From Trichodesmium erythraeum IMS101 (GTDB lineage: Bacteria; Cyanobacteriota; Cyanobacteriia; Cyanobacteriales; Microcoleaceae): DNA of 32,000 nt. The stretch spans positions 3,840,001 through 3,872,000 of the forward strand of contig NC_008312.1 of assembly GCF_000014265.1 (NCBI RefSeq), read 5' to 3'. The notes beneath the pieces are model-generated. The model did not search any database. It was not told the origin of the DNA and saw only the letters and a program-made list of their open reading frames with translations. This document shows positions 3,547-31,175 of this stretch, one piece after another. The stretch's first letter is position 1. Every line of letters starts with the position of its first letter. The position numbers and the translations under genes were made by a program.

Positions 3547-4557
3547 ATGCAGCTAAAACTGACTAACTCAAAACTACCCTTAGCTCCACTTTTGCTAATT
3601 GCTCCCTTCTTCTTTTGGGGAACTGCAATGGTAGCAATGAAAGGTGTTATCCCTCAAACAACACCATTTTTTATGGCAGCAATACGTATATTGCCAGCAG
3701 GTATATTATTGTTACTTATAGGAATGCTTCAGGGAAGACCTCAACCACAAAATAAATTAGCTTGGTTGTGGATATTATTGTTTGCTTTAATAGATGGTGC
3801 TTTGTTTCAAGGGTTTTTGGCGCAAGGGTTAGTCAAAACAGGTGCTGGGTTGGGCTCAGTAATGATTGACTCTCAACCTCTAGCGGTAGCTATTTTATCA
3901 TTGTGGTTATTTCAAGAGAGAATTAGATTTTGGGGTTGGCTAGGGTTAGGTATTGGTGTTTTTGGCATTAGCTTAATTGGTTTACCTGATGAATGGATAT
4001 CAAGTTTACTGCACCCGGAAACAATACAAATATCTCTGGGTATGGATACTTTTTCTCAAAGTGGAGAATGGTTAATGTTATTAGCATCTCTGTCTATGGC
4101 AGTAGGAACAGTATTAGTGCGTTGGGTTTGCAAATACAACGACCCAGTTATGGCAACTGGTTGGCATTTAATTTTAGGTGGTATTCCATTGCTTGCTATT
4201 TCAGCAGGGGTTGAGTCTCAGCAATGGGTTAATATTGATCAGTATGGTTGGATAGCTATGGGTTATGCCGCTGTTTTTGGGAGCGCGATCGCTTATGGTT
4301 TATTTTTTTACTTTGCTTCTTCAGGAAATCTTACCAGTTTGAGTGCTTTAACTTTTCTCACACCAATTTTTGCTTTGTTATTTGGCAATTTATTTTTAGG
4401 AGAAATATTGAGTCGGCTACAGTCAATAGGAGTTGGTTTAACTTTAGTAAGTATTTATTTAATTAATCAGCGGGATGTATTAGCTGAGAGGTTAAATTTT
4501 AGTAGTTCAAGACAAGAAGTTTTTTCCAATATTACTACACGCAATTTATTAAAATAG
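3547..4557 (+). CDS. EamA/DMT-superfamily membrane transporter
   Basis: 336-aa ORF with about 10 hydrophobic segments arranged as two similar halves, the pattern typical of EamA. ATG at 3547 follows an AT-rich divergent promoter region. Confidence 0.75.
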   Translation: MQLKLTNSKLPLAPLLLIAPFFFWGTAMVAMKGVIPQTTPFFMAAIRILPAGILLLLIGMLQGRPQPQNKLAWLWILLFALIDGALFQGFLAQGLVKTGAGLGSVMIDSQPLAVAILSLWLFQERIRFWGWLGLGIGVFGISLIGLPDEWISSLLHPETIQISLGMDTFSQSGEWLMLLASLSMAVGTVLVRWVCKYNDPVMATGWHLILGGIPLLAISAGVESQQWVNIDQYGWIAMGYAAVFGSAIAYGLFFYFASSGNLTSLSALTFLTPIFALLFGNLFLGEILSRLQSIGVGLTLVSIYLINQRDVLAERLNFSSSRQEVFSNITTRNLLK

Positions 4558-4798
4558 TCTCAAAAGTAAGCAGTTGAATTGAGGCTACAACTTGAAGTTG
4601 AGATATTAGAAAAAAAGTTAACTAACAGAAAATTGGCAAAGCTAAAATGTAGCTACCGATTAGATTTGCCATAACTGAGTCTTTTCAGAGCTGTTCCCAT
4701 CTCGATAATGAGAATAAACTACAACCAGATTTAGTTTGGCGACAACAGCGCTATGTTTTTTATTGGTAAGTTTTAATAATATCAAAGGTAAAATAATT

Positions 4799-7700
4799 AT
4801 GCTTGAGTCTTTTGCAATAGTAGCCAGTGGACAATTAGTAGGTTTTCTCGCTAAAGAAGTTCTGGGAAAATTGGCTAAAGAAGCACTTGAAGATTATGTT
4901 AAAGATTTTTTTAAGCAATGTATTACTGATTTTAAAGATAGGATAAGCAATACCAAAAAAAAGCATTTAGAAAAAGCTACTGCAGAAGCTCTGAAAGAAT
5001 TTTTAGAATTAGTACAGCAAGAGTTAGAAGATGCAGATTTAGAGGAAAATCAGTTACAAGAATATAATCAACCTTTGGAACAGTTTCTCAAAAATAAGTT
5101 AGTTAGAGAAACTTTGGGGAGTGCTTTTGATAATAATAGAAAAATTGTAGATACTAAGATATTAGCTAATATTGCTAAAGACATTGTTCCAGATTTGCCA
5201 CCTAATTTTGACTGGCAAAGAGTCGCAAGAAGATATGGCAAAAAAGTTAAAAATATTAGGAATAATTATGATGAATTACGGAAAATATTAGATTCAGAAA
5301 ACCTCGCTCAAATAGCAAATCAAAATTATAAAATTACACCAGAATTTGACCTCAGAAAATATCAAGAAGGTATCCAAGAACAATATGGAAAACTCAAATT
5401 AGAAAGTTTAGATACCAGTGGTTATGGTTATAATGAACTGAAATTATGGGGAATGTTTATTCCTCAAAATGTTCGAGAATCTCAAGAATTTAGGCCTCAA
5501 TTATATGAGGTTCCTAAAGAATATCTCCAACAATTAAAAGAGACGGGGCAGTTAGAGGCAGAATTTTCTCTAGAACAATTGGAAACTGTCCGACGCAGAT
5601 ATTTAGAACAGCCGGCTCGCTCGGTTTTAGAACTAATAGAAAATACCAACTATAAATATTTAGTTATTCTGGGAGACCCTGGTTCTGGCAAGTCTACCTT
5701 ATTACAATATATCGCTTTGGAATGGGCAGAATTACCTCTGAAAGATTTGCCTTTAAAACCAATTCCTCTATTAATTGAACTACGGACTTATGTGAGAAAT
5801 CATGAGACTAATAAATGCCAAAGTTTTCTAGATTTTCTGGAAAAAGGTAGCGGTTTAAATTGCCATTTTCCTCAAAAAGAACTTCATGCAAAACTACAAA
5901 ATGGTGATGCTATTGTGATGTTTGATGGGTTGGATGAAGTTTTTGAACCTGCTAAAAGAAAGGAAATAATTACTGATATTCATCGGTTTACAAATGATTA
6001 TAAAAATGTCCGGGTTATTGTTACTTCTAGAGTAATTGGTTATCAGCCACAACAACTCCGGGATGCTGAATTTTATCATTTTATGTTGCAAGATTTGGGG
6101 TCGGAACAAGTTGAGGATTTTATTCAACGTTGGCATGATTTAACTTATCAAGATGAGCGGGAAAAAGAGCGGAAAAGGGAAAGGTTGAAACGGGCAATTA
6201 ATGATTCTTCAGCTATTAAGCAATTGTCGGGAAATCCTTTGTTATTAACTATGATGGCTATTTTAAATCGTCATCAAGAATTACCGAGAGATAGGGCAGA
6301 ACTTTATAATCAAGCTTCTCGGGTTTTATTACAGCAATGGGATATGGAAAGGGCTTTAGTTGATGCTAAGATTGACCCGATAACTATTGACTATAAAGAT
6401 AAGCAAGAAATTTTGCGCCGAGTTGCTGATTTTATGCAACAAAATAAAGAAGGTTTGGCTGGTAATTTGATTGATGAAAGCAGCTTAGAAAGTATTATTA
6501 AAAAGTATCTAAAAAGTGTAGATATTAATGATGTGAGATTTGTGGCTAGGGCGTTGATGGAACAGTTGCGGGTTAGGAATTTTATTTTGTGTTTTGTTGG
6601 GGGTGGATATTATGCTTTTGTGCATCGAACTTTTTTAGAATATTTCTGTGCTTGGAGTTTTGTTTGGCAGTTTACGGTAACACAAACTCTGGGAAAAGAT
6701 GGGTTGATAAATGATGTTTTTGGTGGTCATTGGCGGGATGAAAAATGGCATGAAGTATTACGGTTAATTTCTGGGATGATAGATGCTAAGTTTGTGGGAG
6801 ATATTATTAGTTATTTGATGGAACAAGATGGGGAAGAGGAAAAGTTTCAGAATTTATTTTTGGCGGGCAAGTGTTTGTCTGAAGTTAGGAGTAGTCAGGG
6901 TATTGGTGATGTGGAAACTCGGTTATTAAATAGGTTAAAAGATTTGACTGGGTATGACCTTGGTTATTTTTATGAATCTTATGATGAAGATGATGAAGAT
7001 GCAGAGTTAGTTCGTGAAATTCGTACTCAAGCTGTGGAAATAGTGGCTACATCCTGGAGGGATGACTCTTCAACTTATGCTTGGCTTAAAGAAAGGGTTG
7101 TGTCTGATGAAAGTTCGTTTGTGCGACGTGAAGCCGTCGGACAAATAGCTACTGGTTGGAAACACGAGCCCGGAATTTTAGAATTACTCAAACAAAGGGT
7201 TGTGTCTGATGAAAGTGAGGATGTGCGAGCTGAAGCCCTCCGACAAATAGCTACTGGTTGGAAACACGAGCCCGGAATTTTAGAATTACTCAAACAATGG
7301 GTTGTGTCTGATGAAAGTGAGTCTGTGCGAGCTGAAGCCCTCCGACAAATAGCAACTGGTTGGAAACACGAGCCGGGAATTTTAGAATTACTCAAACAAT
7401 GGGTTGTGTCTGATGAAAGTCAGCTTGTGCGAGGTGAAGCCCTCCGACAAATAGCTACTGGTTGGAAACACGAGCCCGGAATTTTTGAATTACTCAAACA
7501 AAGGGTTGTGTCTGATGAAAGTTGGCTTGTGCGAGGTGTAGCCCTCCGACAAATAGCAACTGGTTGGAAACACGAGCCCGGAATTTTAGAATTACTCAAA
7601 CAATGGGTTGTGTCTGATGAAAGTGAGGATGTGCGAGCTGAAGCCCTCCGACAAATAGCTACTGGTTGGAAACACGAGCCCGGAATTTTAGAATTACTCA

Positions 7701-8818
7701 AACAATGGGTTGTGTCTGATGAAAGTCAGCTTGTGCGACGTGAAGCCGTCCGACAAATAGCTACTGGTTGGAAACACGAGCCCGGAATTTTAGATTTACT
7801 CAAACAAAGGGTTGTGTCTGATGAAAGTTGGCAGGTGCGAACTGAAGCCGTCCGACAAATAGCTACTGGTTGGAAACACGAGCCCGGAATTTTAGAATTA
7901 CTCAAACAAAGGGTTGTGTCTGATGAAGACTTGAATGTGCGAACTGAAGCCGTCCGACAAATAGCTACTGGTTGGAAACACGAGCCCGGAATTTTAGAAT
8001 TACTCAAACAAAGGGTTGTGTCTGATGAAAGTCAGCTTGTGCGAACTGAAGCCGTCGGACAAATAGCTACTGGTTGGAAACACGAGCCCGGAATTTTAGA
8101 ATTACTCAAACAAAGGGTTGTGTCTGATGAAAGTGAGGATGTGCGAGCTGAAGCCCTCCGACAAATAGCAACTGGTTGGAAACACGAGCCCGGAATTTTA
8201 GAATTACTCAAACAAAGGGTTGTGTCTGATGAAAGTGTGCGTGTGCGAACTGAAGCCCTCCGACAAATAGCAACTGGTTGGAAACACGAGCCCGGAATTT
8301 TTGAATTACTCAAACAAAGGGTTGTGTCTGATGAAAGTGAGGATGTGCGAACTGAAGCCCTCCGACAAATAGCAACTGGTTGGAAACACGAGCCCGGAAT
8401 TTTAGAATTACTCAAAGAAAGGGTTGTGTCTGATGAAAGTGAGGATGTGCGACGTGAAGCCCTCCGACAAATAGCTACTGGTTGGAAACACGAGCCCGGA
8501 ATTTTTGAATTACTCAAACAAAGGGTTGTGTCTGATGAAAGTTGGGATGTGCGACGTGAGGCAGTCAAACAAATAGCAACTGGTTGGAAACAGGAGCCCG
8601 GAACTTTTGAAATATTTTATGACAACGCCCTCAACGATCCCTTTGAACGTAAACATGAATTTCAAGACAACCCTCGACAAACAGCACTAGAAGCAATAGT
8701 CAAACAATACCCAGACCATCCCCAAACCCTCCCACTATTACAAGACAGAGCCGAAAACGACCCAGACAAAAAACTACAGAAATGGGCAAAAAGGATATTG
8801 CAGCAATATACAACATAG
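4799..8818 (+). CDS. NACHT-domain STAND NTPase with a helical N-terminal module and 15 C-terminal 34-aa HEAT-like repeats (paralog 1)
   Basis: Walker A GDPGSGKST (5672-5698), Walker B IVMFDGLDEV, then SGNPLLLTMMA and FVHRTFLEYF motifs typical of NACHT. The C-terminus is VRxEAxRQIATGWKHEPGILELLKQRVVSDESxx repeated 15 times. The ORF track starts at TTG 4736. I prefer ATG 4799 because the segment AAAGG(T/AT)AAAATAATTATG is shared with the paralog's start at 10766. Confidence 0.85.
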   Translation: MLESFAIVASGQLVGFLAKEVLGKLAKEALEDYVKDFFKQCITDFKDRISNTKKKHLEKATAEALKEFLELVQQELEDADLEENQLQEYNQPLEQFLKNKLVRETLGSAFDNNRKIVDTKILANIAKDIVPDLPPNFDWQRVARRYGKKVKNIRNNYDELRKILDSENLAQIANQNYKITPEFDLRKYQEGIQEQYGKLKLESLDTSGYGYNELKLWGMFIPQNVRESQEFRPQLYEVPKEYLQQLKETGQLEAEFSLEQLETVRRRYLEQPARSVLELIENTNYKYLVILGDPGSGKSTLLQYIALEWAELPLKDLPLKPIPLLIELRTYVRNHETNKCQSFLDFLEKGSGLNCHFPQKELHAKLQNGDAIVMFDGLDEVFEPAKRKEIITDIHRFTNDYKNVRVIVTSRVIGYQPQQLRDAEFYHFMLQDLGSEQVEDFIQRWHDLTYQDEREKERKRERLKRAINDSSAIKQLSGNPLLLTMMAILNRHQELPRDRAELYNQASRVLLQQWDMERALVDAKIDPITIDYKDKQEILRRVADFMQQNKEGLAGNLIDESSLESIIKKYLKSVDINDVRFVARALMEQLRVRNFILCFVGGGYYAFVHRTFLEYFCAWSFVWQFTVTQTLGKDGLINDVFGGHWRDEKWHEVLRLISGMIDAKFVGDIISYLMEQDGEEEKFQNLFLAGKCLSEVRSSQGIGDVETRLLNRLKDLTGYDLGYFYESYDEDDEDAELVREIRTQAVEIVATSWRDDSSTYAWLKERVVSDESSFVRREAVGQIATGWKHEPGILELLKQRVVSDESEDVRAEALRQIATGWKHEPGILELLKQWVVSDESESVRAEALRQIATGWKHEPGILELLKQWVVSDESQLVRGEALRQIATGWKHEPGIFELLKQRVVSDESWLVRGVALRQIATGWKHEPGILELLKQWVVSDESEDVRAEALRQIATGWKHEPGILELLKQWVVSDESQLVRREAVRQIATGWKHEPGILDLLKQRVVSDESWQVRTEAVRQIATGWKHEPGILELLKQRVVSDEDLNVRTEAVRQIATGWKHEPGILELLKQRVVSDESQLVRTEAVGQIATGWKHEPGILELLKQRVVSDESEDVRAEALRQIATGWKHEPGILELLKQRVVSDESVRVRTEALRQIATGWKHEPGIFELLKQRVVSDESEDVRTEALRQIATGWKHEPGILELLKERVVSDESEDVRREALRQIATGWKHEPGIFELLKQRVVSDESWDVRREAVKQIATGWKQEPGTFEIFYDNALNDPFERKHEFQDNPRQTALEAIVKQYPDHPQTLPLLQDRAENDPDKKLQKWAKRILQQYTT
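7078..8610 (+). repeat. In-frame tandem array, 15 x 102 bp (34-aa HEAT-like units) inside paralog 1
   Basis: The core caaatagc(t/a)actggttggaaacacgagcccggaattttagaattactcaaacaa(a/t)gggttgtgtctgatgaaagt recurs every 102 nt. Differences cluster in a few codons. Confidence 0.95.
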
Positions 8819-8846
8819 CCATTCCCACAGTTCTGATACACATTTA

Positions 8847-8907
8847 CGATCGCCCTCAAAATGCCACTCAGCTCTCAGCAGGAGACAGGACGATAAAATT
8901 GGCACTT
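8847..8907. repeat. 61-bp dispersed repeat, copy A (29 nt downstream of the paralog 1 stop)
   Basis: cgatcgccctcaaaatgccactcagctctcagcaggagacaggacgataaaattggcactt. It is identical to 10617-10677 except one base (8891 c versus 10661 g). Confidence 0.9.
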
Positions 8908-9055
8908 CAGTGTCATCTAGGGAAATTCCTGCATTACCTAACTCTTGTCTGAGGTCTTCTATTGCTTTAATTACTTCTTCCTTGAAACTACTACAGTAAC
9001 AAAAAGTCACCTGAAACTTTGTATCTATCTCAAACTTTTTAGCTCTTGACTTATA

Positions 9056-9985
9056 TTAAAAATCCTCAAATAAATGCAACCAACTCAACAAATCTTCCAA
9101 ATTATTAAAATCTAAAGAGTCTTCCCCTAAATTATCCAAATGTGCAACTGATAAACCCTCAATTTGACTAGTTATTGCCTCCGGAACTTCTCCAAAACGC
9201 TTTTTAAGTTGACGTATTATTAATTGCCCTCTCCCTTTTTGTTCGCCTTTTTGTTCCCCTCTTCGCTCTCCTTGTTGTTCCGCATAAGTTATCCGTCCTC
9301 TTTCATCTTGCATTGCTATTCCTCGACGCTCAACTATGTCTAACTCTTCCGCTGTCATGTTAATTTTATTAGCAATATTTAAAGCCTTTTCTATTTCCGA
9401 AACTTCTCTTAAATTCTCCGGTATCTCATCTAAACGGCTAGCACTTTTGAGAAAATAAATCCACTTATCACTTAAAGTATGTAACTCAGACAAATTTTTC
9501 TTAAACTTGGGTAATTCTACAAAAAATAGTTGTAATTCTTGTTCCAGAAACTTAAATTTTTTAGTCTCTTGTTGAAAGACAAACTTATTAATTATATCCT
9601 CATTATTTTCAAACAAAATAAAGTCTGTAATTGTTACCCCTATAGCTGGATTCAGCAAGAGATAATCTTCTCCTGTTTCTAATTGATTTGCATAAGCTTT
9701 AGCTAGGTTATAAGCTACTCGTTTATTAAAACCAGTCATTCTAGCAACCTGCATTTCAATCACTACAATAGAACCATCTACTAAAACAGCTTTGATATCT
9801 AAATATGTATCTTTTAAACTCAGCAATTGACCAGGATTAAAAGGATTAGCAATTGTCAAAGACTGAATAATTTTTTTCCCCCCATAAATTATGGCATTGA
9901 GAAAGCTAATCAAGATATCTTGACTTTGTTGCGAACCGAAGATTTTTTTAAAAGCATAATCTATTTTAGGACTAACAAATTTCAT
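9056..9985 (-). CDS. Rpn-family recombination-promoting nuclease / putative transposase (PD-(D/E)XK fold, DUF4351-like C-terminus)
   Basis: The N-terminus MKFVSPKIDYAFKKIFGSQQSQDILISFLNAI and the core DIKAVLVDGSIVVIEMQV are characteristic of this family. A low-complexity GERRGEQKGEQKG linker follows, then a LIIRQLKKRFGEVPE tail. Confidence 0.8.
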   Translation of the reverse strand: MKFVSPKIDYAFKKIFGSQQSQDILISFLNAIIYGGKKIIQSLTIANPFNPGQLLSLKDTYLDIKAVLVDGSIVVIEMQVARMTGFNKRVAYNLAKAYANQLETGEDYLLLNPAIGVTITDFILFENNEDIINKFVFQQETKKFKFLEQELQLFFVELPKFKKNLSELHTLSDKWIYFLKSASRLDEIPENLREVSEIEKALNIANKINMTAEELDIVERRGIAMQDERGRITYAEQQGERRGEQKGEQKGRGQLIIRQLKKRFGEVPEAITSQIEGLSVAHLDNLGEDSLDFNNLEDLLSWLHLFEDF

Positions 9986-10616
9986 GATTTTTTTCTCCTA
10001 ATTAATAATTAAAATTGTCAAATAGTTATCTACAGACTTTATATTTACTAACATTTTTATGATTCTCGTGTACACCATAATTATAACATTTATAGCTGGA
10101 ATATGTCACAATTTTTTAGAGACAACTTGAGGATATAATCTCCTAAAATATCAATTAGGTAATTAACAATTAATAGTACACTTTCTCTCGATATATCTAC
10201 TACTAAATTATCAATTAAAATCATTAATAGTTAATGTGAATATGAAGTATACGTAGATTTACAAAAGGTGCAATATATGTCTAGAGTGTTCAAGAAATCT
10301 TCACTTTTATTGGATTAGTTATGAGACTTTTTGTGATATTATATAAATCTTATAAAATCGAACCATTCTTATTATAAATAGGATGGATGGTACTATTAGT
10401 AGTTAAATCTAATGGTGTGTGCGATCGCCTTATATTTGGGAGGTAAATAATATGGTAAAAAAAGTAATAGATCGAGAGGTTTATTATACTCAGAAACAAT
10501 TACAGGACTTACCCATTTATCATAGGCTATATATAGTGTATTTGCGTAAGTCCTGATACTAAAATCTCAAGTTATCTGAGTTTAAATTTTGAATGTTTTA
10601 TATTTTCCTATTGACG

Positions 10617-10677
10617 CGATCGCCCTCAAAATGCCACTCAGCTCTCAGCAGGAGACAGGAGGATAAAATTGGCACTT
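10617..10677. repeat. 61-bp dispersed repeat, copy B (89 nt upstream of the paralog 2 start)
   Basis: Same sequence as 8847-8907 with one mismatch. Its 5' end sits in a HIP1 site. Confidence 0.9.
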
Positions 10678-10765
10678 ACAGGACTAGGGTAGAACGCTAG
10701 ATATTGACTAAATACAATACCCTTATATTATAATACATAACTAACATATAAAGGATAAAATAATT

Positions 10766-13700
10766 ATGATTGAATGGTTAGTTGCTTGGGGAAGTAGTGA
10801 AGCGGTTAAATTTATTGCTCAGGAAGTTGTTGGAAAGTTAGGGAAGGGTGCTGTTGAAGATTATGTTAAGGATTTTTTGAAGCAAAACATCTCTAATGCT
10901 GTTGCCAGAATAGCAAATGGAGAACCTTTAAAAAAAGCTACTAAACAAGCAATTAAAGATTTTGAGAATTTGGGATATAAAGAGTTAAAAAATACTGATT
11001 TGAGTGAAAGTAAATTAAAGGAATATGATAAATATTTCAAGTCTTTTATTCAAGAGGGGTCTGTTTTAGAGGTTTTAATTAGTGCCTTCGATAATGATGT
11101 GAAAATTTTAGATATTAATAAATTGGCTACTGCCTGGAACAAAATAAATCCACCTTTACCAGATAACTTTGACTGGGATTTTTTGGCAAAGCAACATCAG
11201 AGAAGTGTTAAAGATATTATCCGGAGTTTCCCAGAATTACGGATAATATTAGATTCTAAAAACCTCGATCAAATAGCAAATCAAAATTATAAAATTACAC
11301 CAGAATTTGACCTCAGAAAATATCAAGAAGGTATCCAAGAACAATATGGAAATCTCAAACTAGAAAGTTTAGATACCAGTGGTTATGGTTATAATGAACT
11401 GAAATTATGGGGAATGTTTATTCCTCAAAATGTTCGAGAATCTCAAGAATTTAGGCCTCAATTATATGAGGTTCCTAAAGAATATCTCCAACAATTAAAA
11501 GAGACGGGGCAGTTAGAGGCAGAATTTTCTCCAGAACAATTGGAAACTGTCCGACGCAGATATTTAGAACAGCCGGTTCGCTCGGTTTTAGAACTAATAG
11601 AAAATACCAACTATAAATATTTAGTTATTCTGGGAGACCCTGGTTCTGGCAAGTCTACCTTATTACAATATATCGCTTTGGAATGGGCAGAATTACCTCT
11701 GAAAGATTTGCCTTTAAAACCAATTCCTCTATTAATTGAACTACGGACTTATGTGAGAAATCATGAGACTAATAACTGCCAAAATTTTCTAGATTTTCTC
11801 GAAAAAGGTAGCGGTTTAAATTGCCATTTTCCTCAAAAAGAACTTCATGCAAAATTACAAAATGGTGATGCTATTGTGATGTTTGATGGATTAGATGAAG
11901 TTTTTGAACCTGCTAAAAGAAAAGAAATAATTACTGATATTCATCGGTTTACAAATGATTATAAAAATGTCCGGGTTATTGTTACTTCTAGAGTAATTGG
12001 TTATCAGCCACAACAACTCCGGGATGCTGAATTTTATCATTTTATGTTGCAAGATTTGGGGTCGGAACAAGTTGATAATTTTATTCAACTTTGGCATGAT
12101 TTAACTTATCAAGATGAGGGGGAAAAAGAGCGGAAAAGGGAAAGGTTGAAACGGGCAATTAATGATTCTTCAGCTATTAAGCAGTTGTCGGGAAATCCTT
12201 TGTTATTAACTATGATGGCTATTTTAAATCGTCATCAAGAATTACCGAGAGATAGGGCAGAACTTTATAATCAAGCTTCTCGGGTTTTATTACAGCAATG
12301 GGATATGGAAAGGGCTTTAGTTGATGCTAAGATTGACCCGATAACTATTGACTATAAAGATAAGCAAGAAATTTTGCGCCGAGTTGCTGATTTTATGCAA
12401 CAAAATAAAGAGGGTTTGGCTGGTAATTTGATTGATGAAAGCAGCTTAGAAAATATTATTAAAGATTATCTAAAAAGTGTAGATATTAATGATGTGAGAG
12501 TTGTGGCTAGGGCGTTGATGGAACAGTTGCGGGTTCGTAATTTTATTTTGTGTTTTGTTGGGGGTGGATATTATGCTTTTGTGCATCGAACTTTTTTAGA
12601 ATATTTCTGTGCTTGGAGTTTTGTTTGGCAGTTTACGGTAACACAAACTCTGGGAAAAGATGGGTTGATAAATGATGTTTTTGGTGGTCATTGGCGGGAT
12701 GAAAAATGGCATGAGGTATTACGGTTAATTTCTGGGATGATAGATGCTAAGTTTGTGGGAGATATTATTAGTTATTTGATGGAACAAGATGGGGAAGAGG
12801 AAAAGTTTCAGAATTTATTTTTGGCGGGCAAGTGTTTGTCTGAAGTTAGGAGTAGTCAGGGTATTGATGATGTGGAAAATCGGTTATTAAATAGGTTAAA
12901 AGAGTTGACTGGGTATGACCTTGGTTATTTTTATCAACCATTGTACTTAAGCTTTAGTTCTATTTCTAGGGAAATTTATAGGAAAAATTTAGACTTAGTT
13001 CGTGAAATTCGTACTCAAGCTGTGGAAATAGTGGCTACAACCTGGAGGGACGACCCTTCAACTTATGCTTGGCTCAAACAAAGGGTTGTGTCTGATGAAG
13101 ACTCGGATGTGCGACGTGAAGCCGTCCGACAAATAGCTACTGGTTGGAAACACGAGCCGGGAATTTTAGAATTACTCAAACAATGGGTTGTGTCTGATGA
13201 AGACTCGGATGTGCGACGTGAAGCCCTCCGACAAATAGCTACTGGTTGGAAACACGAGCCCGGAATTTTAGAATTACTCAAACAATGGGTTGTGTCTGAT
13301 GAAAGTGAGTATGTGCGAACTGAAGCCGTCCGACAAATAGCTACTGGTTGGAAACACGAGCCCGGAATTTTAGAATTACTCAAACAATGGGTTGTGTCTG
13401 ATGAAAGTGAGGATGTGCGAGGTGAAGCCCTCGGACAAATAGCAACTGGTTGGAAACACGAGCCGGGAATTTTAGAATTACTCAAACAATGGGTTGTGTC
13501 TGATGAAAATTGGCATGTGCGAACTGAAGCCCTCCGACAAATAGTAACTGGTTGGAAACACGAGCCCGGAATTTTAGAACTACTCAAACAATGGGTTGTG
13601 TCTGATGAAAGTGAGCTTGTGCGAGGTGAAGCCCTCCGACAAATAGCTACTGGTTGGAAACACGAGCCGGGAATTTTAGATTTACTCAAACAAAGGGTTG

Positions 13701-14815
13701 TGTCTGATGAAAGTGAGTATGTGCGAACTGAAGCCGTCGGACAAATAGCTACTGGTTGGAAACACGAGCCCGGAATTTTAGAATTACTCAAACAAAGGGT
13801 TGTGTCTGATGATAGTGAGTCTGTGCGAGCTGAAGCCCTCCGACAAATAGCTACTGGTTGGAAACACGAGCCCGGAATTTTAGAATTACTCAAACAAAGG
13901 GTTGTGTCTGATGATAGTGAGTCTGTGCGAGCTGAAGCCCTCCGACAAATAGCTACTGGTTGGAAACACGAGCCCGGAATTTTAGAATTACTCAAACAAA
14001 GGGTTGTGTCTGATGATAGTGAGTCTGTGCGAGCTGAAGCCCTCCGACAAATAGCTACTGGTTGGAAACACGAGCCCGGAATTTTAGAATTACTCAAACA
14101 AAGGGTTGTGTCTGATGATAGTGAGGATGTGCGACGTGAAGCCGTCCGACAAATAGCTACTGGTTGGAAACACGAGCCCGGAATTTTAGAATTACTCAAA
14201 CAATGGGTTGTGTCTGATGAAAGTGAGTATGTGCGACGTGAAGCCCTCGGACAAATAGCTACTGGTTGGAAACACGAGCCCGGAATTTTAGAATTACTCA
14301 AACAATGGGTTGTGTCTGATGAAAGTGAGTATGTGCGACGTGAAGCCCTCCGACAAATAGCTACTGGTTGGAAACACGAGCCCGGAATTTTTGAATTACT
14401 CAAACAAAGGGTTGTGTCTCATGAAAGTTCGTCTGTGCGAACTGAAGCCGTCCGACAAATAGCTACTGGTTGGAAACACGAGCCCGGAATTTTAGAATTA
14501 CTCAAACAAAAGGTTGTGTCTGATGAAAGTTGGGATGTGCGACGTGAGGCAGTCAAACAAATAGCAACTGGTTGGAAACAGGAGCCGGGAACTTTTGAAA
14601 TATTTTATGACAACGCCCTCAACGATCCCTTTGAACGTATACATGAAATTCAAGACAACCCTCGACAAACAGCACTAGAAGCAATAGTCAAACAATACCC
14701 AGACCATCCCCAAACCCTCCCACTATTACAAGACAGAGCCGAAAACGACCCAGACGAACAACTACAGAATTGGGCAAAAAGGAAATTGCGATCGCTAAAA
14801 AATAACCAGCGCTAG
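10766..14815 (+). CDS. NACHT-domain STAND NTPase with a helical N-terminal module and 15 C-terminal 34-aa HEAT-like repeats (paralog 2)
   Basis: 1349-aa ORF. From about residue 170 onward it is nearly identical to paralog 1 and has the same Walker A/B and NACHT motifs. The first ~170 aa are only distantly similar. Confidence 0.88.
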   Translation: MIEWLVAWGSSEAVKFIAQEVVGKLGKGAVEDYVKDFLKQNISNAVARIANGEPLKKATKQAIKDFENLGYKELKNTDLSESKLKEYDKYFKSFIQEGSVLEVLISAFDNDVKILDINKLATAWNKINPPLPDNFDWDFLAKQHQRSVKDIIRSFPELRIILDSKNLDQIANQNYKITPEFDLRKYQEGIQEQYGNLKLESLDTSGYGYNELKLWGMFIPQNVRESQEFRPQLYEVPKEYLQQLKETGQLEAEFSPEQLETVRRRYLEQPVRSVLELIENTNYKYLVILGDPGSGKSTLLQYIALEWAELPLKDLPLKPIPLLIELRTYVRNHETNNCQNFLDFLEKGSGLNCHFPQKELHAKLQNGDAIVMFDGLDEVFEPAKRKEIITDIHRFTNDYKNVRVIVTSRVIGYQPQQLRDAEFYHFMLQDLGSEQVDNFIQLWHDLTYQDEGEKERKRERLKRAINDSSAIKQLSGNPLLLTMMAILNRHQELPRDRAELYNQASRVLLQQWDMERALVDAKIDPITIDYKDKQEILRRVADFMQQNKEGLAGNLIDESSLENIIKDYLKSVDINDVRVVARALMEQLRVRNFILCFVGGGYYAFVHRTFLEYFCAWSFVWQFTVTQTLGKDGLINDVFGGHWRDEKWHEVLRLISGMIDAKFVGDIISYLMEQDGEEEKFQNLFLAGKCLSEVRSSQGIDDVENRLLNRLKELTGYDLGYFYQPLYLSFSSISREIYRKNLDLVREIRTQAVEIVATTWRDDPSTYAWLKQRVVSDEDSDVRREAVRQIATGWKHEPGILELLKQWVVSDEDSDVRREALRQIATGWKHEPGILELLKQWVVSDESEYVRTEAVRQIATGWKHEPGILELLKQWVVSDESEDVRGEALGQIATGWKHEPGILELLKQWVVSDENWHVRTEALRQIVTGWKHEPGILELLKQWVVSDESELVRGEALRQIATGWKHEPGILDLLKQRVVSDESEYVRTEAVGQIATGWKHEPGILELLKQRVVSDDSESVRAEALRQIATGWKHEPGILELLKQRVVSDDSESVRAEALRQIATGWKHEPGILELLKQRVVSDDSESVRAEALRQIATGWKHEPGILELLKQRVVSDDSEDVRREAVRQIATGWKHEPGILELLKQWVVSDESEYVRREALGQIATGWKHEPGILELLKQWVVSDESEYVRREALRQIATGWKHEPGIFELLKQRVVSHESSSVRTEAVRQIATGWKHEPGILELLKQKVVSDESWDVRREAVKQIATGWKQEPGTFEIFYDNALNDPFERIHEIQDNPRQTALEAIVKQYPDHPQTLPLLQDRAENDPDEQLQNWAKRKLRSLKNNQR
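13065..14598 (+). repeat. In-frame tandem array, 15 x 102 bp (34-aa HEAT-like units) inside paralog 2
   Basis: Same 102-nt unit as in paralog 1. Units at 13797-13898, 13899-14000 and 14001-14102 are identical base for base. Confidence 0.95.
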
Positions 14816-15818: not shown

Positions 15819-17666
15819 TTAAAGAAAAGGACTAGTTAGTGAGGTAAACTGAAGTAGTTCATTTACACTGGAAGTTGTCAATGGCTTTGAGAAAAAATAC
15901 CCCTGTCCTTTGCGACACTTAAGTTGCTTGAGCTGATTCATTTGAGCCTTAGTTTCTATTCCTTCTGCAATTATTTCTAAATCTAAATTATTAGCCAATG
16001 CAATAACAGCACTCACAATTTTTAAAGTTTGACCGCTTGTATCCGAATCTAATTGACTCACAAAAGAACGGTCAATTTTAATAGTATTAATAGGAAACTG
16101 ATGTAAATAACTTAACGACGAATAACCAGTACCAAAATCATCTATTGATAATCTAATATTTTGATTTTTCAGTTTCTCAAAAACTGCAGTAGCTAAATCA
16201 ACATTTGTCATAATTAAACTTTCAGTAATTTCTAGATTCAAACAATGAGGTTGACAATTTGTTGCCGCCAAAATTTCATTAACTTGTTCCAAAAAATTTG
16301 GTTGTGAGATATTCTTGCTAGAAATATTGACACTCATAGTAAAATTATGAGCAATAAAATTACAGTCAGAATATGCCAAACCAGAGCAAACATGTCTCCC
16401 TGTCAACCTTTTCTGCCAAACAGCCAACTGATGACAAGCCGTTCGCAATATCCACATTCCTAGAGGAATAATTAAACCCGTTTCTTCTGCCAATGGGATA
16501 AACTTTCCTGGTTGAATTAAGCCTTTAGTAGGATGAGCCCAGCGTACCAAACATTCAAAACCAGTAATTTTATTTGTAGTTAAACAAATAATTGGTTGGT
16601 AACTTAAAAAAAACTGAGAATTTACTGGATTTTGTTTAATCATTTCTACAGCTCGTCGTAGATCATTTTCCAATTCTAATAAAGATACAACTTCTCTGTG
16701 CATTGTCAAATCAAACACCTCATACCTTGCCTTACCTAAATCTTTAGCCCGATACATCGCAATATCTGCAGCTCGCAGTACATCTTCTGGGTGGTTGTAA
16801 ATAGGACAAATAGGAAAACTATTTTCACCGAGCTGATCACTAAACTGTTTACAATTAGTAACAATGCCAATACTTACTGTAGTAAATATTTCATGTCCTT
16901 CAACATAAATTGGTTGAGCAAGTTCTTGATTAATTTTCATAGCTACTTTAGTAGCATAGTCAGCATCGGGTAGAGACCTTAGTAAGATAGTGAACTCATC
17001 CCCTCCTAACCTCGCCACAGTATCTGAAGCTTTGATATAATTCTGTAGTCGCCTGCTGATGATGACTAATACTTGATCTCCAATAACATGCCCCAAACTA
17101 TCATTAATTACTTTAAAGCGATCTAGATCTAAAAACAGAACCCCATACTTATAACTTAGGTCTTTTCTAGACTGATGTAAAACTAGTTTTAGTTCATTAA
17201 AAAACAAATTACGGTTTGGTAAACCCGTCAGCCCATCGTGAAATGCCTTATATAAAAGTGTAGCTTGTTTTTGTCTGTGTTTCTTGAGCTTTTTAACAAT
17301 TACCTGCTTTGCTACCTCATTATTATCATTATTATCATTATAATAAATTTGCATAGAAGAATCTATAGCTTGTTCATTTAGTTTAATCAACTTTTTTCGA
17401 CCACTAGATAAAACATCATCCACCTTAGACTTGAGCTTTTTCCAAAAGGCAGAGTTGAGCTGAAGTAATTTATAAATATAATGAATAAGCTGATAAATTT
17501 TATTAGTAAACTGCTTAAAGCTCTTCCAAATTGATAAATAATCACAGGTTAATAGCAAGGACGTTAACCCTTTCAATAGATGAAAAGTATGAATTCTCGA
17601 AATAGTAGCTATTAAATTTAATATCAGTCTCAATGAACAAACCCCTGGTATTTGTGTAACAATCAT
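15819..17666 (-). CDS. GGDEF-EAL dual-domain c-di-GMP turnover protein (diguanylate cyclase/phosphodiesterase)
   Basis: GGDEF domain: GLPNRNLF...RLGGDEFTILL. EAL domain: GFECLVRW, LEITES, DDFGTGYSSLSYL, KIDRSFV, AEGIET, QGYFFSKPL. The N-terminal ~150 aa are low-complexity or coiled and show no sensor domain I recognise. The start codon is uncertain. Confidence 0.85.
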   Translation of the reverse strand: MIVTQIPGVCSLRLILNLIATISRIHTFHLLKGLTSLLLTCDYLSIWKSFKQFTNKIYQLIHYIYKLLQLNSAFWKKLKSKVDDVLSSGRKKLIKLNEQAIDSSMQIYYNDNNDNNEVAKQVIVKKLKKHRQKQATLLYKAFHDGLTGLPNRNLFFNELKLVLHQSRKDLSYKYGVLFLDLDRFKVINDSLGHVIGDQVLVIISRRLQNYIKASDTVARLGGDEFTILLRSLPDADYATKVAMKINQELAQPIYVEGHEIFTTVSIGIVTNCKQFSDQLGENSFPICPIYNHPEDVLRAADIAMYRAKDLGKARYEVFDLTMHREVVSLLELENDLRRAVEMIKQNPVNSQFFLSYQPIICLTTNKITGFECLVRWAHPTKGLIQPGKFIPLAEETGLIIPLGMWILRTACHQLAVWQKRLTGRHVCSGLAYSDCNFIAHNFTMSVNISSKNISQPNFLEQVNEILAATNCQPHCLNLEITESLIMTNVDLATAVFEKLKNQNIRLSIDDFGTGYSSLSYLHQFPINTIKIDRSFVSQLDSDTSGQTLKIVSAVIALANNLDLEIIAEGIETKAQMNQLKQLKCRKGQGYFFSKPLTTSSVNELLQFTSLTSPFL

Positions 17667-19189: not shown

Positions 19190-19936
19190 CTAGCGCAACG
19201 CAAAATCAGAACGCAACCTCAATTCTAAATCATCCTCTGGATAAATAACAACTACCTCCCCTTCTTCCCGACCCAATAACACTCCACCTAAAGCACCTAA
19301 ACCCGCACCTATTAATATCCTTTCCGTAGCCAGAACCCGATCTCCAAGAACCGCAGATAATAAAGCAGCAGCACCACCACCCACAGCAGCACCCTTCAAG
19401 ATATCCCCAGCGCTTGCACCTTTTGTTATTTCTTCAGTCTCAGTAATTACTTGAGAAACAGCATTAATAGGAAACCTACGGCGATCGCCAATAATTAATT
19501 GTTCAGCAAAAAACTGAGTCCCATTTGAAACAGGTCGTAGTTCACCTTCTATCTCACCACCAAAAGGTATAACCACTCTTCCTTGAGCATCCCTAATATC
19601 TTTAGTCACCCTCAACCTTAACCTCATCGACTCATCTGGAGTTATCACAACCTTTTCTGCTTCCTTATATTCTATAGGAATAAGCTTTCCTGCTCGTATC
19701 CTTGCTACAGACAACGGCCCTCTTGGGTTACCTGGATATCGTCTGTGTTGGTAGCCTGGATATCGTCTTTGTTGGTAGCCTGGGTATTGTCTTTGTTGGT
19801 AGCCTGGGTATTGTCTTGGTCCGTTAAATTGAGCCATAGCTTGTTTTGACATTAAACCAGGAGTTGCTGTAGCTAATGTCATGCCTAAAGTCAACAACAA
19901 AGACGTTCCAGAATGCCAGTTTTTTGAATTAACCAT
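19190..19936 (-). CDS. Hypothetical exported protein with (Q/R)YPGYQQR tandem repeats and a C-terminal glycine-zipper segment
   Basis: Signal-peptide-like N-terminus (SLLLTLGMTLATATPGLMSKQAMAQ). Four 8-aa (24-nt) repeats. C-terminal GAAVGGGAAALLSAVLG...GAGLGALGGVLLG. I recognise no family. Confidence 0.6.
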   Translation of the reverse strand: MVNSKNWHSGTSLLLTLGMTLATATPGLMSKQAMAQFNGPRQYPGYQQRQYPGYQQRRYPGYQHRRYPGNPRGPLSVARIRAGKLIPIEYKEAEKVVITPDESMRLRLRVTKDIRDAQGRVVIPFGGEIEGELRPVSNGTQFFAEQLIIGDRRRFPINAVSQVITETEEITKGASAGDILKGAAVGGGAAALLSAVLGDRVLATERILIGAGLGALGGVLLGREEGEVVVIYPEDDLELRLRSDFALR

Positions 19937-26499: not shown

Positions 26500-28455
26500 A
26501 TGAAAACAGAAGTCAGAAACATTAATACAGAAATATTAGAACATAATTTACAACGAAACTGGCAAGATTTAAAAAAATCTAATGATGTTTGTGAAATTAA
26601 ATGCGACTTAAAGGTAGGAACATTATTGGTTATTTTTCAACATCCAGCAAATGTAGTGATAGATAAGCAAAAAACAATTGCAGAGTTAAAAACTCTAGTT
26701 CAAAAACAGGAGTTAGAATATATAGAAAAAGTAGGTATTTGCTTGAATATAATAGGTCATACATATCCTTATGCTTATCATTCATTTTTTACCAAGGATA
26801 CCTCAGAAGAATCTATGTTCACTTTTCTGCCCAAATGGGTAGATAGAAATATAGATTCTGAAATAAAAATTACACCAGAATTACTAGATTCCTTAGATAA
26901 TCCATTTAGTTTAAAAGATTTAGAAGCAATATCTATGAGACTAGAATCTGAGGGTATGTCTGATACAAATCCTCATCTAATCAATCAGCATATCTCTCAG
27001 GATAAAAGTCAAAATTCAGAAATTAAAATCACTTCAAAAATACTGGATGATTTAGATAATCCTTTTGATATGGAAGGATTAGATTTATCCCCAAAAAAAA
27101 TTAATAGAAAAACTAGGAATTATGTAGAAAAAACATCGCCTATAATCAAAGAATCAACTATTAATTTAGCTGCCTTTTCTCAAGTAGAATTGATTAGCGC
27201 TAGTTTAAGTTTAGCAATTTTAATAGGCTGTTTTTTTGCAATAACTCAACCCTGTGTGATTGGAAAATGTATGATAATATCAACGGCAAAAGAATTAAAT
27301 CAACAATCACTAGAAACAATTAAAAATGTCAAAAATTCTTTGGCTCCAAAGTGGGCACAAGAAAATTTAGAAACAGCAATTAAAAATTTAGAAAAGATTC
27401 CATTTTGGTCAATACATTACTTAGAATCACAAAATTTAAAGTCTACTTACAAAACAGAAAATGAGCATTTGGAAACAATTAGACAAGCTTTGCGTAATGG
27501 TGCACAAGCAGCTCAAAAAAGCAAAGGTTTACCACTACCAATAGAAGAATGGATAGAAATTCAATCACTTTGGCAAGAAGCGATCGCTCTATTAGAAAAA
27601 GTACCAGAAGATAGTAGAGCTTATCCTTTTGCTAAAAATAAACTACAGCAATATCGCAAGTATTTAGTTGCTATTAAAGGAAGATTAACTAGTGAAGAAG
27701 AAGCTAATCAAAAGTTAATAGCGGCGAAAAAATTAGCTCAGTTAGCAGAGACCAGAGAGGTAATAGCTCAATTTCCTGAAAGCTGGAAAAGTGTACATTC
27801 AAACTGGAAAGATGCCTTAGATAAAGTATCTAAGATTCCTCAACAAACAACTGCTTATTTAAAAGCCAAAAATTTACTTTCTCAGTATAAACAAAAACTT
27901 CAGCAAGCAGAGGAACGTAGAATCGTAGAAGAAATTGGTCAAGAGGCTTATAATCAAGCTATTAGTTACTCTAAACAAGCTGAAGTGTTTGAGGCAAAAG
28001 ATAATTGGAGAGATGCTGCAAAATATTGGCAAAAAGCTCTAAATTATGCTGAAGACATACCAACTAATTCAAGTTATTTTATTTCAGCAAAACCTCTGAT
28101 TAAATCTTATGATACTTTGCTAAAAGTAGCACAATCAAACCAAAGGTTATTAGATACTTTAGCAAAAGCTAATCAGGACTTAAATAAGACTTGCAAGGGA
28201 AAACAAAAAATTTGTCAATATAGTGTTACTAAGGATTTAATTACTGTACGTTTGACTTTTGATTATGTAGATAAAATCAAAAAAACAGCTAAAGCAGTGA
28301 AAAATAGTAAAGACAAAAAGAGTCGTACTGAACTCGAAAAACATTTGAAAACTTTAGAGGTTGCTTTAAAGGCTATTAGTAATAATTCTAAGATTCCTTT
28401 AGAACTTTATAACCCACAAGGTTTAAAAATTGCTTCTCATTTTCCCAATAGTTAA
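26500..28455 (+). CDS. Hypothetical membrane-anchored protein with internal repeats
   Basis: 651-aa ORF. It has a duplicated SEIKIT(P/S)xxLDxLDNPF segment and one hydrophobic helix (LISASLSLAILIGCFFAITQP). A helical C-terminal part carries four W..A...L..(I/V)P......Y..(A/S)..L modules. I recognise no family. Confidence 0.6.
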   Translation: MKTEVRNINTEILEHNLQRNWQDLKKSNDVCEIKCDLKVGTLLVIFQHPANVVIDKQKTIAELKTLVQKQELEYIEKVGICLNIIGHTYPYAYHSFFTKDTSEESMFTFLPKWVDRNIDSEIKITPELLDSLDNPFSLKDLEAISMRLESEGMSDTNPHLINQHISQDKSQNSEIKITSKILDDLDNPFDMEGLDLSPKKINRKTRNYVEKTSPIIKESTINLAAFSQVELISASLSLAILIGCFFAITQPCVIGKCMIISTAKELNQQSLETIKNVKNSLAPKWAQENLETAIKNLEKIPFWSIHYLESQNLKSTYKTENEHLETIRQALRNGAQAAQKSKGLPLPIEEWIEIQSLWQEAIALLEKVPEDSRAYPFAKNKLQQYRKYLVAIKGRLTSEEEANQKLIAAKKLAQLAETREVIAQFPESWKSVHSNWKDALDKVSKIPQQTTAYLKAKNLLSQYKQKLQQAEERRIVEEIGQEAYNQAISYSKQAEVFEAKDNWRDAAKYWQKALNYAEDIPTNSSYFISAKPLIKSYDTLLKVAQSNQRLLDTLAKANQDLNKTCKGKQKICQYSVTKDLITVRLTFDYVDKIKKTAKAVKNSKDKKSRTELEKHLKTLEVALKAISNNSKIPLELYNPQGLKIASHFPNS

Positions 28456-29799: not shown

Positions 29800-31175
29800 C
29801 GGGACTTTAGTGAAAAAATAGTAAAAAAAAGGGTATAATGTATACCTGATATGTATTTTACGTTAATTACTGGCCTGGGAAAAGTTTGATGAAAGAAACA
29901 ACTTCAGTGGCCATGCCCTCTTGTTTCCATCGATGGTGCGATCGCTTTAACAATGTCTTTAAAACAAAAGCCCAAAAAACAGGGTTTAGGGAATATATAG
30001 GAGGATTACTCTTGAGAAAGCGATCGAAAAAACTTGTCTCAAATTGCCAACAACACTGTAGGTCACACGTACCACAAATTACGGCATTTTCTAGTTCGAG
30101 CAAATTGGTCTGTAGATGCTGTGAATGAGCGTCGTCTTCAAGTAATGTGGGAACGTCGCCAAACAAAACCTTCTCGATCCTATTGCTTTAATTATAGACG
30201 ATTCAGGCCACAGAAAAAGTGGTAATTTTACTGCAGGAGTAGGGCGGCAATATATAGGAGAAATAGGAAAAACAGATAATGGTGTAGTCGTGGTGACAAC
30301 TCATCTTTATGATGGAGTTAAAAGTCTACCTTTAGACATAGCTTTGTATCAGAAAGCTGATTCTTTTCCAAAAGGAAAAAAAGACCCAGAATTTGTCAAG
30401 AAACCAGACGAGTGCAATGTCTCTAGTAGATCAATGTTTGTCCAGAGGACACCAACCAGAAATTGTGTTAATTGAAATTTGGCTATGGTAACAATACATC
30501 ATTCTTAAATCAACTAGAGAAAAGAAGTTTAACTTATATAGGAGGATTAGCTAAAAATCGAAAAGTCATCATTAAAAAACAAGATGACATTAAAGAGGAA
30601 ATTAGATTAGACAAGCTGGCAGAAAGTATACCTCAGAAAGCTTTCAACTTAGTTCAACTAAGTACAAAAAATGCTAGAGAAGTTTGGGTAGCTACATTAG
30701 AAGTAGAAATATCTAGGATGTCAGGTCAAAAAACTATAGCTATCGTTATGAATGCTAAAAGTTTTTCTGAGGCCACTGATATTAACTATTATATCACTAA
30801 TAGAGAAGACAAATATGTAACTCCTGAGTGGATATATTCTACTTATTCTCAAAGAAATTGGGTGGAAGTTTTCTACAGGGAAGCCAAAGGATGGTTAGGA
30901 TTAAGAGAATATCAAGTCAGAGATAAAATCAGCCTTAAAAGGCATTTTATTTTAGTATTTTGTGCTTATACATTTATTATCTGGCATCAGTTAACAGGAG
31001 GTATAAGAAGGCGTTGGGCTAACAAACCATTAAATACGTTTACTGATACTTTAGAAGCATTTCGTACCGCAATATCTTATCGTTTTGTTGAGTGGTTAGA
31101 TGAAAACATCGACGTATTTACCGCTCATAAAGAGAGTTTAGGGTTTGTTTGGGCTTGAAATTTGCTAAAGTCCCG
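29800..31175 (+). mobile_element. IS701-family-like insertion sequence (1376 bp) with a decayed transposase
   Basis: Terminal inverted repeats CGGGACTTTAG at 29800-29810 and, reverse-complemented, at 31165-31175. Flanking 4-bp direct repeat TTAT at 29796-29799 and 31176-31179. Removing the element and one TTAT restores the normal unit junction caattatgagtc. Confidence 0.85.
29886..31158 (+). pseudogene. IS701-like DDE transposase, disrupted by at least three to four frameshifts
   Basis: The reading continues across four frames: ...FREYIGGLL / SQIANNTVGHTYHKLRHFLVRANWSVDAVNERRLQVM / ALIIDDSGHRKSGNFTAGVGRQYIGEIGKTDNGVVVVTTHLYDG / SLVDQCLSRGHQPEIVLI / GYGNNTSFLNQLEKRSLTYIGGLAKNRKV...NWVEVFYREAKGWLGLREYQVR. 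These motifs are typical of IS701/IS4-like DDE enzymes. Confidence 0.8.

Follow-up and report, generated by a model that had tools for sequence, protein, structure and literature searches.

Among the known systems closest to the genes considered here are the bacterial NLR-related (bNACHT) proteins of Kibby et al. (10.1101/2022.07.19.500537), who also defined the NNH domains. For fungal NLRs, pairs of genes from the same genome were reported with NODs 80–99% identical and with unlike N-termini, a pattern read as recent N-terminal swaps (Dyrka et al. 2014, PMC4986451, Table 2). In a stretch of 32 000 nt of the Trichodesmium erythraeum IMS101 genome (NC_008312.1, positions 3 840 001 to 3 872 000; the whole stretch is called the window below) we observed two neighboring genes, A and B, both encoding NNH2-NACHT-HEAT STAND NTPases, which are strongly diverged in their first 158 and 156 codons and nearly identical in the following core. 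We argue that the best explanation is interparalog gene conversion of an internal tract between long-established paralogs, to which we assign a probability of about 0.72.

The step in identity between genes A and B

The two genes and the parts on either side of the step are as follows (window coordinates).

4799..8818, + strand: gene A, NNH2-NACHT-HEAT STAND NTPase, 1339 amino acids (aa) (open reading frame (ORF), translation, Pfam)
10766..14815, + strand: gene B, NNH2-NACHT-HEAT STAND NTPase, 1349 aa (ORF, translation, Pfam)
4799..5272, + strand: variable N-terminal module of A, A type, codons 1–158 (NNH2 profile positions 1–131; divergence from B)
10766..11233, + strand: variable N-terminal module of B, B type, codons 1–156 (NNH2 E = 5e-35 when searched alone)
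5273..6973, + strand: homogenised core of A, consisting of the NNH2 tail, pre-NACHT helices, NACHT and the post-NACHT helical region (alignment, dS, maximum chi-square)
11234..12934, + strand: homogenised core of B (alignment, dS, maximum chi-square)

Gene A (Pfam matches: NNH2 4e-59, NACHT 3e-11, HEAT_2 5e-51) starts from the ATG at 4799, which is consistent with gene calls of other assemblies. Its layout is tripartite, with NNH2 at residues 25–206, NACHT at 287–447 and a HEAT_2 array at ~763–1272; the NACHT profile (PF05729, gathering cutoff 26.7) scored 43.9 bits in A and 40.2 bits in B. Both proteins carry the Walker A motif GDPGSGKST (A residues 292–300, window 5672–5698) and the Walker B motif VMFDGLDE (A residues 373–380, 5915–5938), the columns of which are invariant or nearly so (at least 90%) across an alignment of 13 sequences. 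A PADLOC run on A and B produced weak partial matches only (E 5e-6 or weaker) and no meaningful defence match.

Over 156 aligned codons the N-terminal segments share 43.6% of amino acids and 60.5% of nucleotides; synonymous divergence (dS) is saturated at 1.06, with non-synonymous divergence (dN) of 0.48. The cores, 1701 nt in each gene, are 98.2% identical at the nucleotide level, with 31 mismatches and no gaps; for their 567 codons we determined 96.8% amino acid identity, dS of 0.033 and dN of 0.015. Thus, dS changes ~32-fold across the junction (1.06 versus 0.033). According to the global alignment and BLAST, the junction is at 5273/11234, at GAATTACGGA, where identity climbs to 95–100% within ~10 nt. 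In 60-nt windows covering codons 1–158 and the DNA upstream of them identity is ~40–65%, and immediately 5′ of the junction A and B are unalignable (~50–60% identity). The change along the alignment is stepwise, with no gradient. The maximum chi-square method placed the break at A codon 159, with an observed chi-square of 498 while the maximum in 200 permutations was 17.4. The initial annotation had described ~170 diverged residues, identical at roughly 40%, and then an abrupt switch. The step is real and far beyond chance, though the break falls at residue 158/159.

Beyond the two genes similarity is lost, the upstream and downstream flanks of A and B being unrelated (35–50% identity). Thirteen identical bases, TAAAATAATTATG, extend across the two start codons (4789–4801 and 10756–10768) while the rest of the upstream DNA is unrelated; this short identity may represent a conserved translation-initiation context.

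N-terminal modules and family trees

The NNH2-NACHT-HEAT family is large in filamentous cyanobacteria (3344 matches), and genomes of Trichodesmium, Okeania and Dapis carry several copies each. From loci of these three genera we collected a set of 43 full-length genes. Neighbor-joining trees with Kimura distances and 100 bootstraps were built separately for the N-terminal module and for the core. In the core tree A and B are sisters in 100 of 100 bootstraps and belong to an exclusively Trichodesmium clade, {A, B, L007, L008_1, L042}, also recovered in 100 of 100, the members of which carry four N-terminal types. In the tree of the N-terminal module the two genes are apart in every bootstrap (sisters in 0 of 100) and fall into separate trans-generic clades, each with members from Okeania and Dapis: A groups with L007 and Dapis genes, and B with genes from Trichodesmium MAG_R02 (MAG, metagenome-assembled genome), Okeania and Dapis, with amino acid identities of 75%, 69% and 67%, respectively. 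The phylogenies of the two regions are therefore incongruent, with 100% bootstrap support in both directions, and among pairs from the 43 genes A/B is the most extreme case of a general discordance between the N-terminus and the core.

One could think of a simpler scenario with no recombination at all, where after an ordinary duplication the N-terminus just evolves far faster than a constrained NACHT core. Across the family the N-terminus is indeed less conserved than the core (mean nucleotide identity 0.68 versus 0.78). However, pairs of genes sharing the N-terminal type have similar dS in both regions: 0.51 in the N-terminus and 0.53 in the core for B and L032, 0.52 and 0.41 for B and L014, 0.57 and 0.57 for A and L034. 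Without recombination the two regions diverge together, and a difference in constraint cannot explain the A/B step. Given also the 32-fold change of dS across a boundary of ~10 nt and the tree incongruence at 100% bootstrap, this scenario is refuted, and we leave it practically no probability.

Breaks in similar positions exist in other pairs, at codon 163 in L007/L008_1 (paralogs from Trichodesmium MAG_R03), at codon 174 in L009/L025 and at codon 172 in L013/L026, a pair more alike in the N-terminus than in the core. Another position where breaks recur, codons 696–717, coincides with the site of the A/B linker island described below. Head-to-tail tandem pairs of family genes, 10–67 nt apart, were seen in L008 (1–5279, Trichodesmium MAG_R03) and in two Okeania genomes (L012, 7653–13612; L023, 2131–8066); in the Okeania pairs the upstream member has 772–786 aa and lacks a HEAT array, and the two members have not been homogenised (~81% nucleotide identity).

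The divergent N-termini, taken alone, both match NNH2 (PF22734; NACHT N-terminal Helical domain 2; gathering cutoff 27): residues 1–158 of A with E = 2e-40 (138.8 bits) and residues 1–156 of B with E = 5e-35 (121.2 bits). A and B do not have N-termini from different domain families; judged by sequence, one domain is present in two deeply diverged versions. The break falls at about position 131 of the 181 positions of the NNH2 profile, i.e. inside the Pfam domain and not at its border. A search of 1.84 billion representative sequences yielded 219 clusters matching the NNH2 module; in all but a few of the best 150 of the 219 the module is at the extreme N-terminus, the exceptions among these being mostly start offsets or truncated proteins, with one internal occurrence (584–730).

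The AlphaFold2 model of A residues 1–267 has a mean pLDDT (predicted local distance difference test) of 63, with residues ~50–165 confident and residues 1–25 below 50; in this model the break is at a helix–helix junction (helices 139–156 and 158–175). Foldseek comparison of the model with PDB gave no match with E <0.9. With such values a CC-, HeLo- or MLKL-like pore-forming fold is not claimed for NNH2, and the role of an output module is suggested by its position in the protein. The initial annotation saw in the pair one sensor chassis carrying two output modules; this picture was not sustained, as the N-termini share the NNH2 domain, the break falls within that domain, and the arrays, the linker and the C-terminal end differ as well.

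The N-terminal module of A is itself a mosaic. Its codons 1–50 are 88–97% identical in nucleotides to a gene of Dapis sp. BLCC M229, while 20-codon windows starting at codons 61–151 are 82–93% identical to a Trichodesmium-like paralog, P0019; the switch is near a conserved EFLELVQQELE patch (comparison loci: L096, 8001–10417, and L095, 6001–8679). One could speculate that the first 158 residues make up a separately selected ‘addressing’ or signalling-specificity cassette, which would exist in a few ancient types across Trichodesmium, Okeania and Dapis and would be insulated from homogenisation by selection. We find this rather doubtful. If it were true, near-identical NACHT engines would be wired to distinct partners or outputs, or kept from cross-oligomerisation, and the recurrent junction at codons 159–178 would be a genuine module boundary missed by the Pfam NNH2 model.

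Extent and history of the shared tract

Downstream of the cores the similarity of A and B is interrupted by a linker, continues at a lower level through the HEAT arrays and rises again near the 3′-end. The features in this part are as follows.

6974..7003 (30 nt), + strand: linker island of A, short acidic type ESYDEDDEDAE, not homologous to its B counterpart
12935..12991 (57 nt), + strand: linker island of B, long type QPLYLSFSSISREIYRKNLD, not homologous to its A counterpart
7085..8614, + strand: HEAT array of A, 15 units of 102 nt (34 aa) (Tandem Repeats Finder: period 102, 14.9 copies, 93% matches)
13073..14602, + strand: HEAT array of B, 15 units of 102 nt (Tandem Repeats Finder, unit table)
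8615..8818, + strand: C-terminal tail of A, homologous to B up to ~8795 (alignment, window identities)
14603..14815, + strand: C-terminal tail of B, homologous to A up to ~14783 (alignment)

The linker connects NACHT to HEAT and is either of the short acidic type or of the long type with the ‘SxEIYxKNL’ ending; among homologues the two types assort independently of the N-terminal type. In the arrays the nucleotide identity of units is 0.920 within A, 0.916 within B and 0.918 between A and B, with 0.930 for units compared in register. The in-register identity of the arrays (~93%) hardly exceeds the off-register one (92–93%), and the last unit is the sole one matched by position between the genes. 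From this last unit through the C-terminal tail A/B identity is back at 97–98%, and the homology stops at ~8795/14783, within the last 8–11 codons. Two claims of the initial annotation have to be revised here: identity of 98–99% does not hold for ~3.5 kb but for 1.7 kb, followed by the linker island and by arrays at ~93%; and the tails do diverge, though later than at ~8765/~14755. Where the homology stops in the 3′-end of B there is a HIP1 octamer, GCGATCGC (14789–14796), and the terminal residues of B, RSLKNNQR, are unlike those of A and of the inspected homologues, which have an ending of the QQY type.

Differences between the arrays are not spread evenly. Positions 4, 11, 12, 15, 18 and 19 of the unit are hypervariable; these six codons out of 34 (18% of the unit) account for 63% of nucleotide differences, and the 70 residues differing between A and B among 534 aligned are concentrated there. 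In register, dN of 0.080 exceeds dS of 0.046, a ratio that recombination can inflate. High internal identity, few variable positions and dN above dS, properties of the HIC (highly internally conserved, hypervariable) repeats of fungal NLRs, are present in the A and B arrays. The six positions presumably contact the ligand. As the arrays differ at these positions, their sequences suggest that A and B most likely sense different things. The GC content of the arrays is 0.46, compared with 0.31–0.35 in the rest of the genes and ~0.33 in the surroundings; GC-biased conversion is not a convincing cause, since the excess is mostly in codon positions 1 and 2 and GC at third positions changes only from ~0.25 to ~0.33.

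Of the two histories named in the initial annotation, the one where the NACHT-plus-repeat block is converted and the N-termini are kept distinct fits best, given the dS step, the incongruent trees and the internal position of the tract. An abrupt discontinuity of dS, phylogenetic incongruence and a tract that lies within both genes, between flanks that are unrelated, are among the features by which gene conversion is recognized, and these three were found here. We suggest that A and B would be two old paralogs of a multi-copy cyanobacterial NLR-like family, between which an internal tract, starting at codon 159 and ending a few codons short of the stop, would have been copied non-reciprocally by homologous recombination in the T. 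erythraeum lineage, resetting the core to ~98% identity. Conversion would halt at about codon 159 because the N-terminal types upstream, with DNA only ~60% identical, are too diverged to sustain heteroduplex formation. This barrier can be purely mechanical; selection for distinct N-termini may add to it. The HEAT units would form one shared pool, continually shuffled within and between the arrays, with variation kept at the six presumably ligand-contacting positions. As observed, the evolutionary regime combines a homogenised engine with pooled, diversified repeats and with ancient N-terminal types that are retained.

By analogy with characterised NLR and STAND proteins, the HEAT solenoid might bind a foreign or altered-self ligand; binding would free the NACHT module for nucleotide exchange and oligomerisation, and the clustered NNH2 modules would then serve as effector or adaptor, delivering or recruiting an output.

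The other history is a recent tandem duplication, after which the first 158 codons of one copy, along with the promoter region, were replaced from a third, B-type paralog. Such a course of events is allowed by the syntenic locus of two Dapis genomes, M229 and M172, where a single gene of the A-type clade is located directly upstream of a block formed by orf248 (an ORF of 248 aa in the window) and the genes of a BadF-type ATPase, an S1 protein and a dienelactone hydrolase (DLH), on the side occupied by B in the window. N-terminal pieces do move, as the Dapis-like and P0019-like patchwork in A demonstrates, and pairs with N-termini more alike than cores exist, e.g. L017/L028 (98% versus 92.5%). 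Still, extra events would be needed to account for the end of homology inside the ORF at the 3′ side, the unrelated downstream DNA, the different linkers and the absence of duplicated intergenic DNA; five Trichodesmium genes with four N-terminal types in one core clade would be left unexplained. No near-identical N-terminal donor was found either, the best foreign match being 59% for the whole A module and 75–76% for B. A word-indexed search with the A N-terminus alone, which returned 17 mostly truncated proteins and missed relatives found with a longer query, was not used in the argument on donor absence. Since the ORFs contain both ends of the tract, the intergenic DNA shows no duplication and one core clade carries several N-terminal types, gene conversion is favoured, and duplication with replacement appears to us unlikely, though it deserves to be kept in mind.

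A comparison with other assemblies bears on the reality of the pattern. In the T. erythraeum MAG GBRTRLIN201 (GBR below) a 5 kb part of the locus is 99.76% identical to the window. The N-terminus-to-core joins of A and B are reproduced in the T. erythraeum MAG and in the LEEM17-1 metagenome assemblies (in LEEM17-1, five for the B locus and one shown for A). Contigs from Tara and other metagenomes (L089, L090, L092–L094) carry the A N-terminus and end 70–180 nt past the junction, a position at which the repeat would be expected to stop a short-read assembler. All other assemblies of T. erythraeum break inside the HEAT arrays, which is why look-ups of proteins exactly matching A or B gave no match; the strains were reached through the neighboring Rpn and EamA genes.

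That the cores seem alike due to a collapsed or mis-threaded repeat is a natural concern, as this repeat does cause breaks and mixed copies in short-read assemblies, contigs end within an array or soon after the junction, and no exact protein match is at hand. Against such an artefact, the window retains 31 core differences, two distinct linkers and distinct arrays; both joins recur in assemblies made independently, where one side of the join is flanked by unique DNA; and the same mosaic pattern is present in other genomes. We consider it highly improbable.

Over 4299 nt of unique DNA (3547–5272 and 8661–11233) the GBR MAG and the LEEM17-1 contigs show no difference from the window. In the cores the differences from the window are as follows.

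GBR, B copy: 10 of 1701 nt
GBR, A copy: 2 of 668 nt
LEEM, B copy: 29 of 1701 nt
LEEM, A copy: 25 of 1701 nt

The excess of core differences over flank differences is significant for GBR (12 sites, Fisher p = 4e-6) and for LEEM (54 sites, p = 5e-20). Many of the core differences are swaps of A and B alleles. In the LEEM contigs, which are short-read contigs through a repeat, the B copy carries the A-type linker and the A and B cores differ at 9 sites, versus 31 in the window. In addition, 13 variants common to the two LEEM copies occur in neither A nor B of the window; 10 of these are found in L007, and several represent the family-majority state. The pattern among strains is the one predicted by ongoing concerted evolution, for which we take it as suggestive and give it little weight. 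That strain differences are enriched at A/B-diagnostic sites (p = 7e-9) was at first considered as proof of conversion; the weight of this was lowered, because private mutations in one copy mimic the pattern, and the core-over-flank excess is the sounder statistic.

Several observations weigh against the conversion scenario. The copying may have gone in either direction and in one or more events, and the syntenic Dapis locus with a single A-type gene, mentioned above, allows duplication with N-terminal replacement. In a repeat of 98% identity a short-read assembler can follow the wrong copy, be it A, B or a third paralog, identical flanks could mean that GBR and LEEM are the same strain, and the enrichment at diagnostic sites is partly expected from private mutations alone. 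The trees are simple, being neighbor-joining on Kimura distances and not maximum likelihood. As to the functional part, the AlphaFold model is mediocre and has no match in PDB at the threshold given above.

Between A and B there is a segment with a gene of its own.

8847..8907, strand not assigned: copy 1 of a 61-nt direct repeat, 98% identical to 10617–10677; bounds the segment with the Rpn gene
10617..10677, strand not assigned: copy 2 of the 61-nt direct repeat, 98% identical to 8847–8907
9056..9985, − strand: gene of an Rpn-family recombination-promoting nuclease/putative transposase (PDDEXK_2 7.7e-49 and DUF4351; TIGR01784 159.7 bits, cutoff 52.1)

The 61-nt repeat has just two copies in the window, with none expected by chance. 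The Rpn gene is located exactly between A and B, in the 1770-nt segment bounded by the repeats; minus this segment, the spacing of A and B would be ~177 nt, similar to the tight tandem pairs in L008, L012 and L023. We considered the Rpn nuclease as a driver of the A/B exchange and rejected it: within 10 kb of 80 other family loci there was no full-length Rpn homologue, just three weak matches in the DUF4351 region in two loci. For this reason the Rpn gene is treated as probably an incidental insertion.

The genes around the pair are ordinary housekeeping ones: chorismate mutase, S49 peptidase and EamA transporter upstream of A; a GGDEF-EAL gene, an orphan ORF, a BadF-type ATPase, an S1 protein and a dienelactone hydrolase downstream of B. 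The 248-aa ORF (window 19190–19936, − strand) has no Pfam or NCBIfam match and is conserved at 73% amino acid identity; in two Dapis genomes (L034, 14222–14890; L036, 15005–15742) it is syntenic with an NLR gene and the BadF-S1-DLH genes. In the window the GGDEF-EAL gene (15819–17666) is interposed. Farther downstream there are an ORF of 651 aa with no Pfam or NCBIfam match (26500–28455, + strand) and a 228-aa fragment of a DDE transposase (30472–31158, + strand), with a DDE_Tnp_1_4 score under the Pfam gathering cutoff.

Comparison with known NLR-like systems

A and B resemble the bNACHT proteins in their three-part layout, with a helical NNH domain at the N-terminus, NACHT in the middle and sensor repeats of the ‘antigen receptor-type’ (here HEAT), in the number of paralogs per genome in multicellular cyanobacteria, and in N-terminal regions that vary faster than NACHT (10.1101/2022.07.19.500537). 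Kibby et al. cover variation of architecture between species, not sharply bounded conversion of neighboring paralogs; their defence tests included no Trichodesmium member with NNH2 and a HEAT array. The N-termini of A and B also differ from the bNACHT picture in belonging to the same domain family.

The fungal NOD pairs provide a likeness in the near-identical core joined to unlike N-termini (PMC4986451). The fungal N-termini, however, come from different families (HeLo-like versus SesB-like), whereas those of A and B are both NNH2, 44% identical, with the break inside the domain. The Podospora nwd genes, NLRs with HIC repeats, are similar in having highly conserved repeats (92% nucleotide identity in A/B) that are exchanged within and between paralogs, with variation at few positions per repeat and dN above dS (PMC4986451; PMC13449251); the A/B repeats are HEAT, not WD40, ANK or TPR, and they belong to a bacterium, with no RIP (repeat-induced point mutation). 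For the tandem paralogs TLR1/TLR6 of mammals (PMC2077338) and for CEACAM paralogs (PMC7042247), gene conversion is reported to limit divergence, with one segment homogenised and another escaping; the outcome is likewise an identity step and incongruent trees, in other protein families and kingdoms.

Among the papers covered by our search, none reports gene conversion for NACHT genes of cyanobacteria. The mechanism itself is known, from conversion in tandem immune-receptor paralogs, from concerted evolution of fungal nwd genes and from the fungal NOD pairs. For practical purposes, a real module boundary in NNH2-NACHT proteins is suggested at about codon 159 and not at the Pfam edge, which may be useful for the design of chimeras, and annotators should expect such genes to be systematically truncated or mixed up in short-read assemblies and MAGs. 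The A/B pair offers a clean, quantified bacterial case of the mode in which plant and fungal NLR families evolve, with the engine homogenised, the repeat arrays pooled, and variation concentrated at a few presumably ligand-facing positions and in the N-terminal module.

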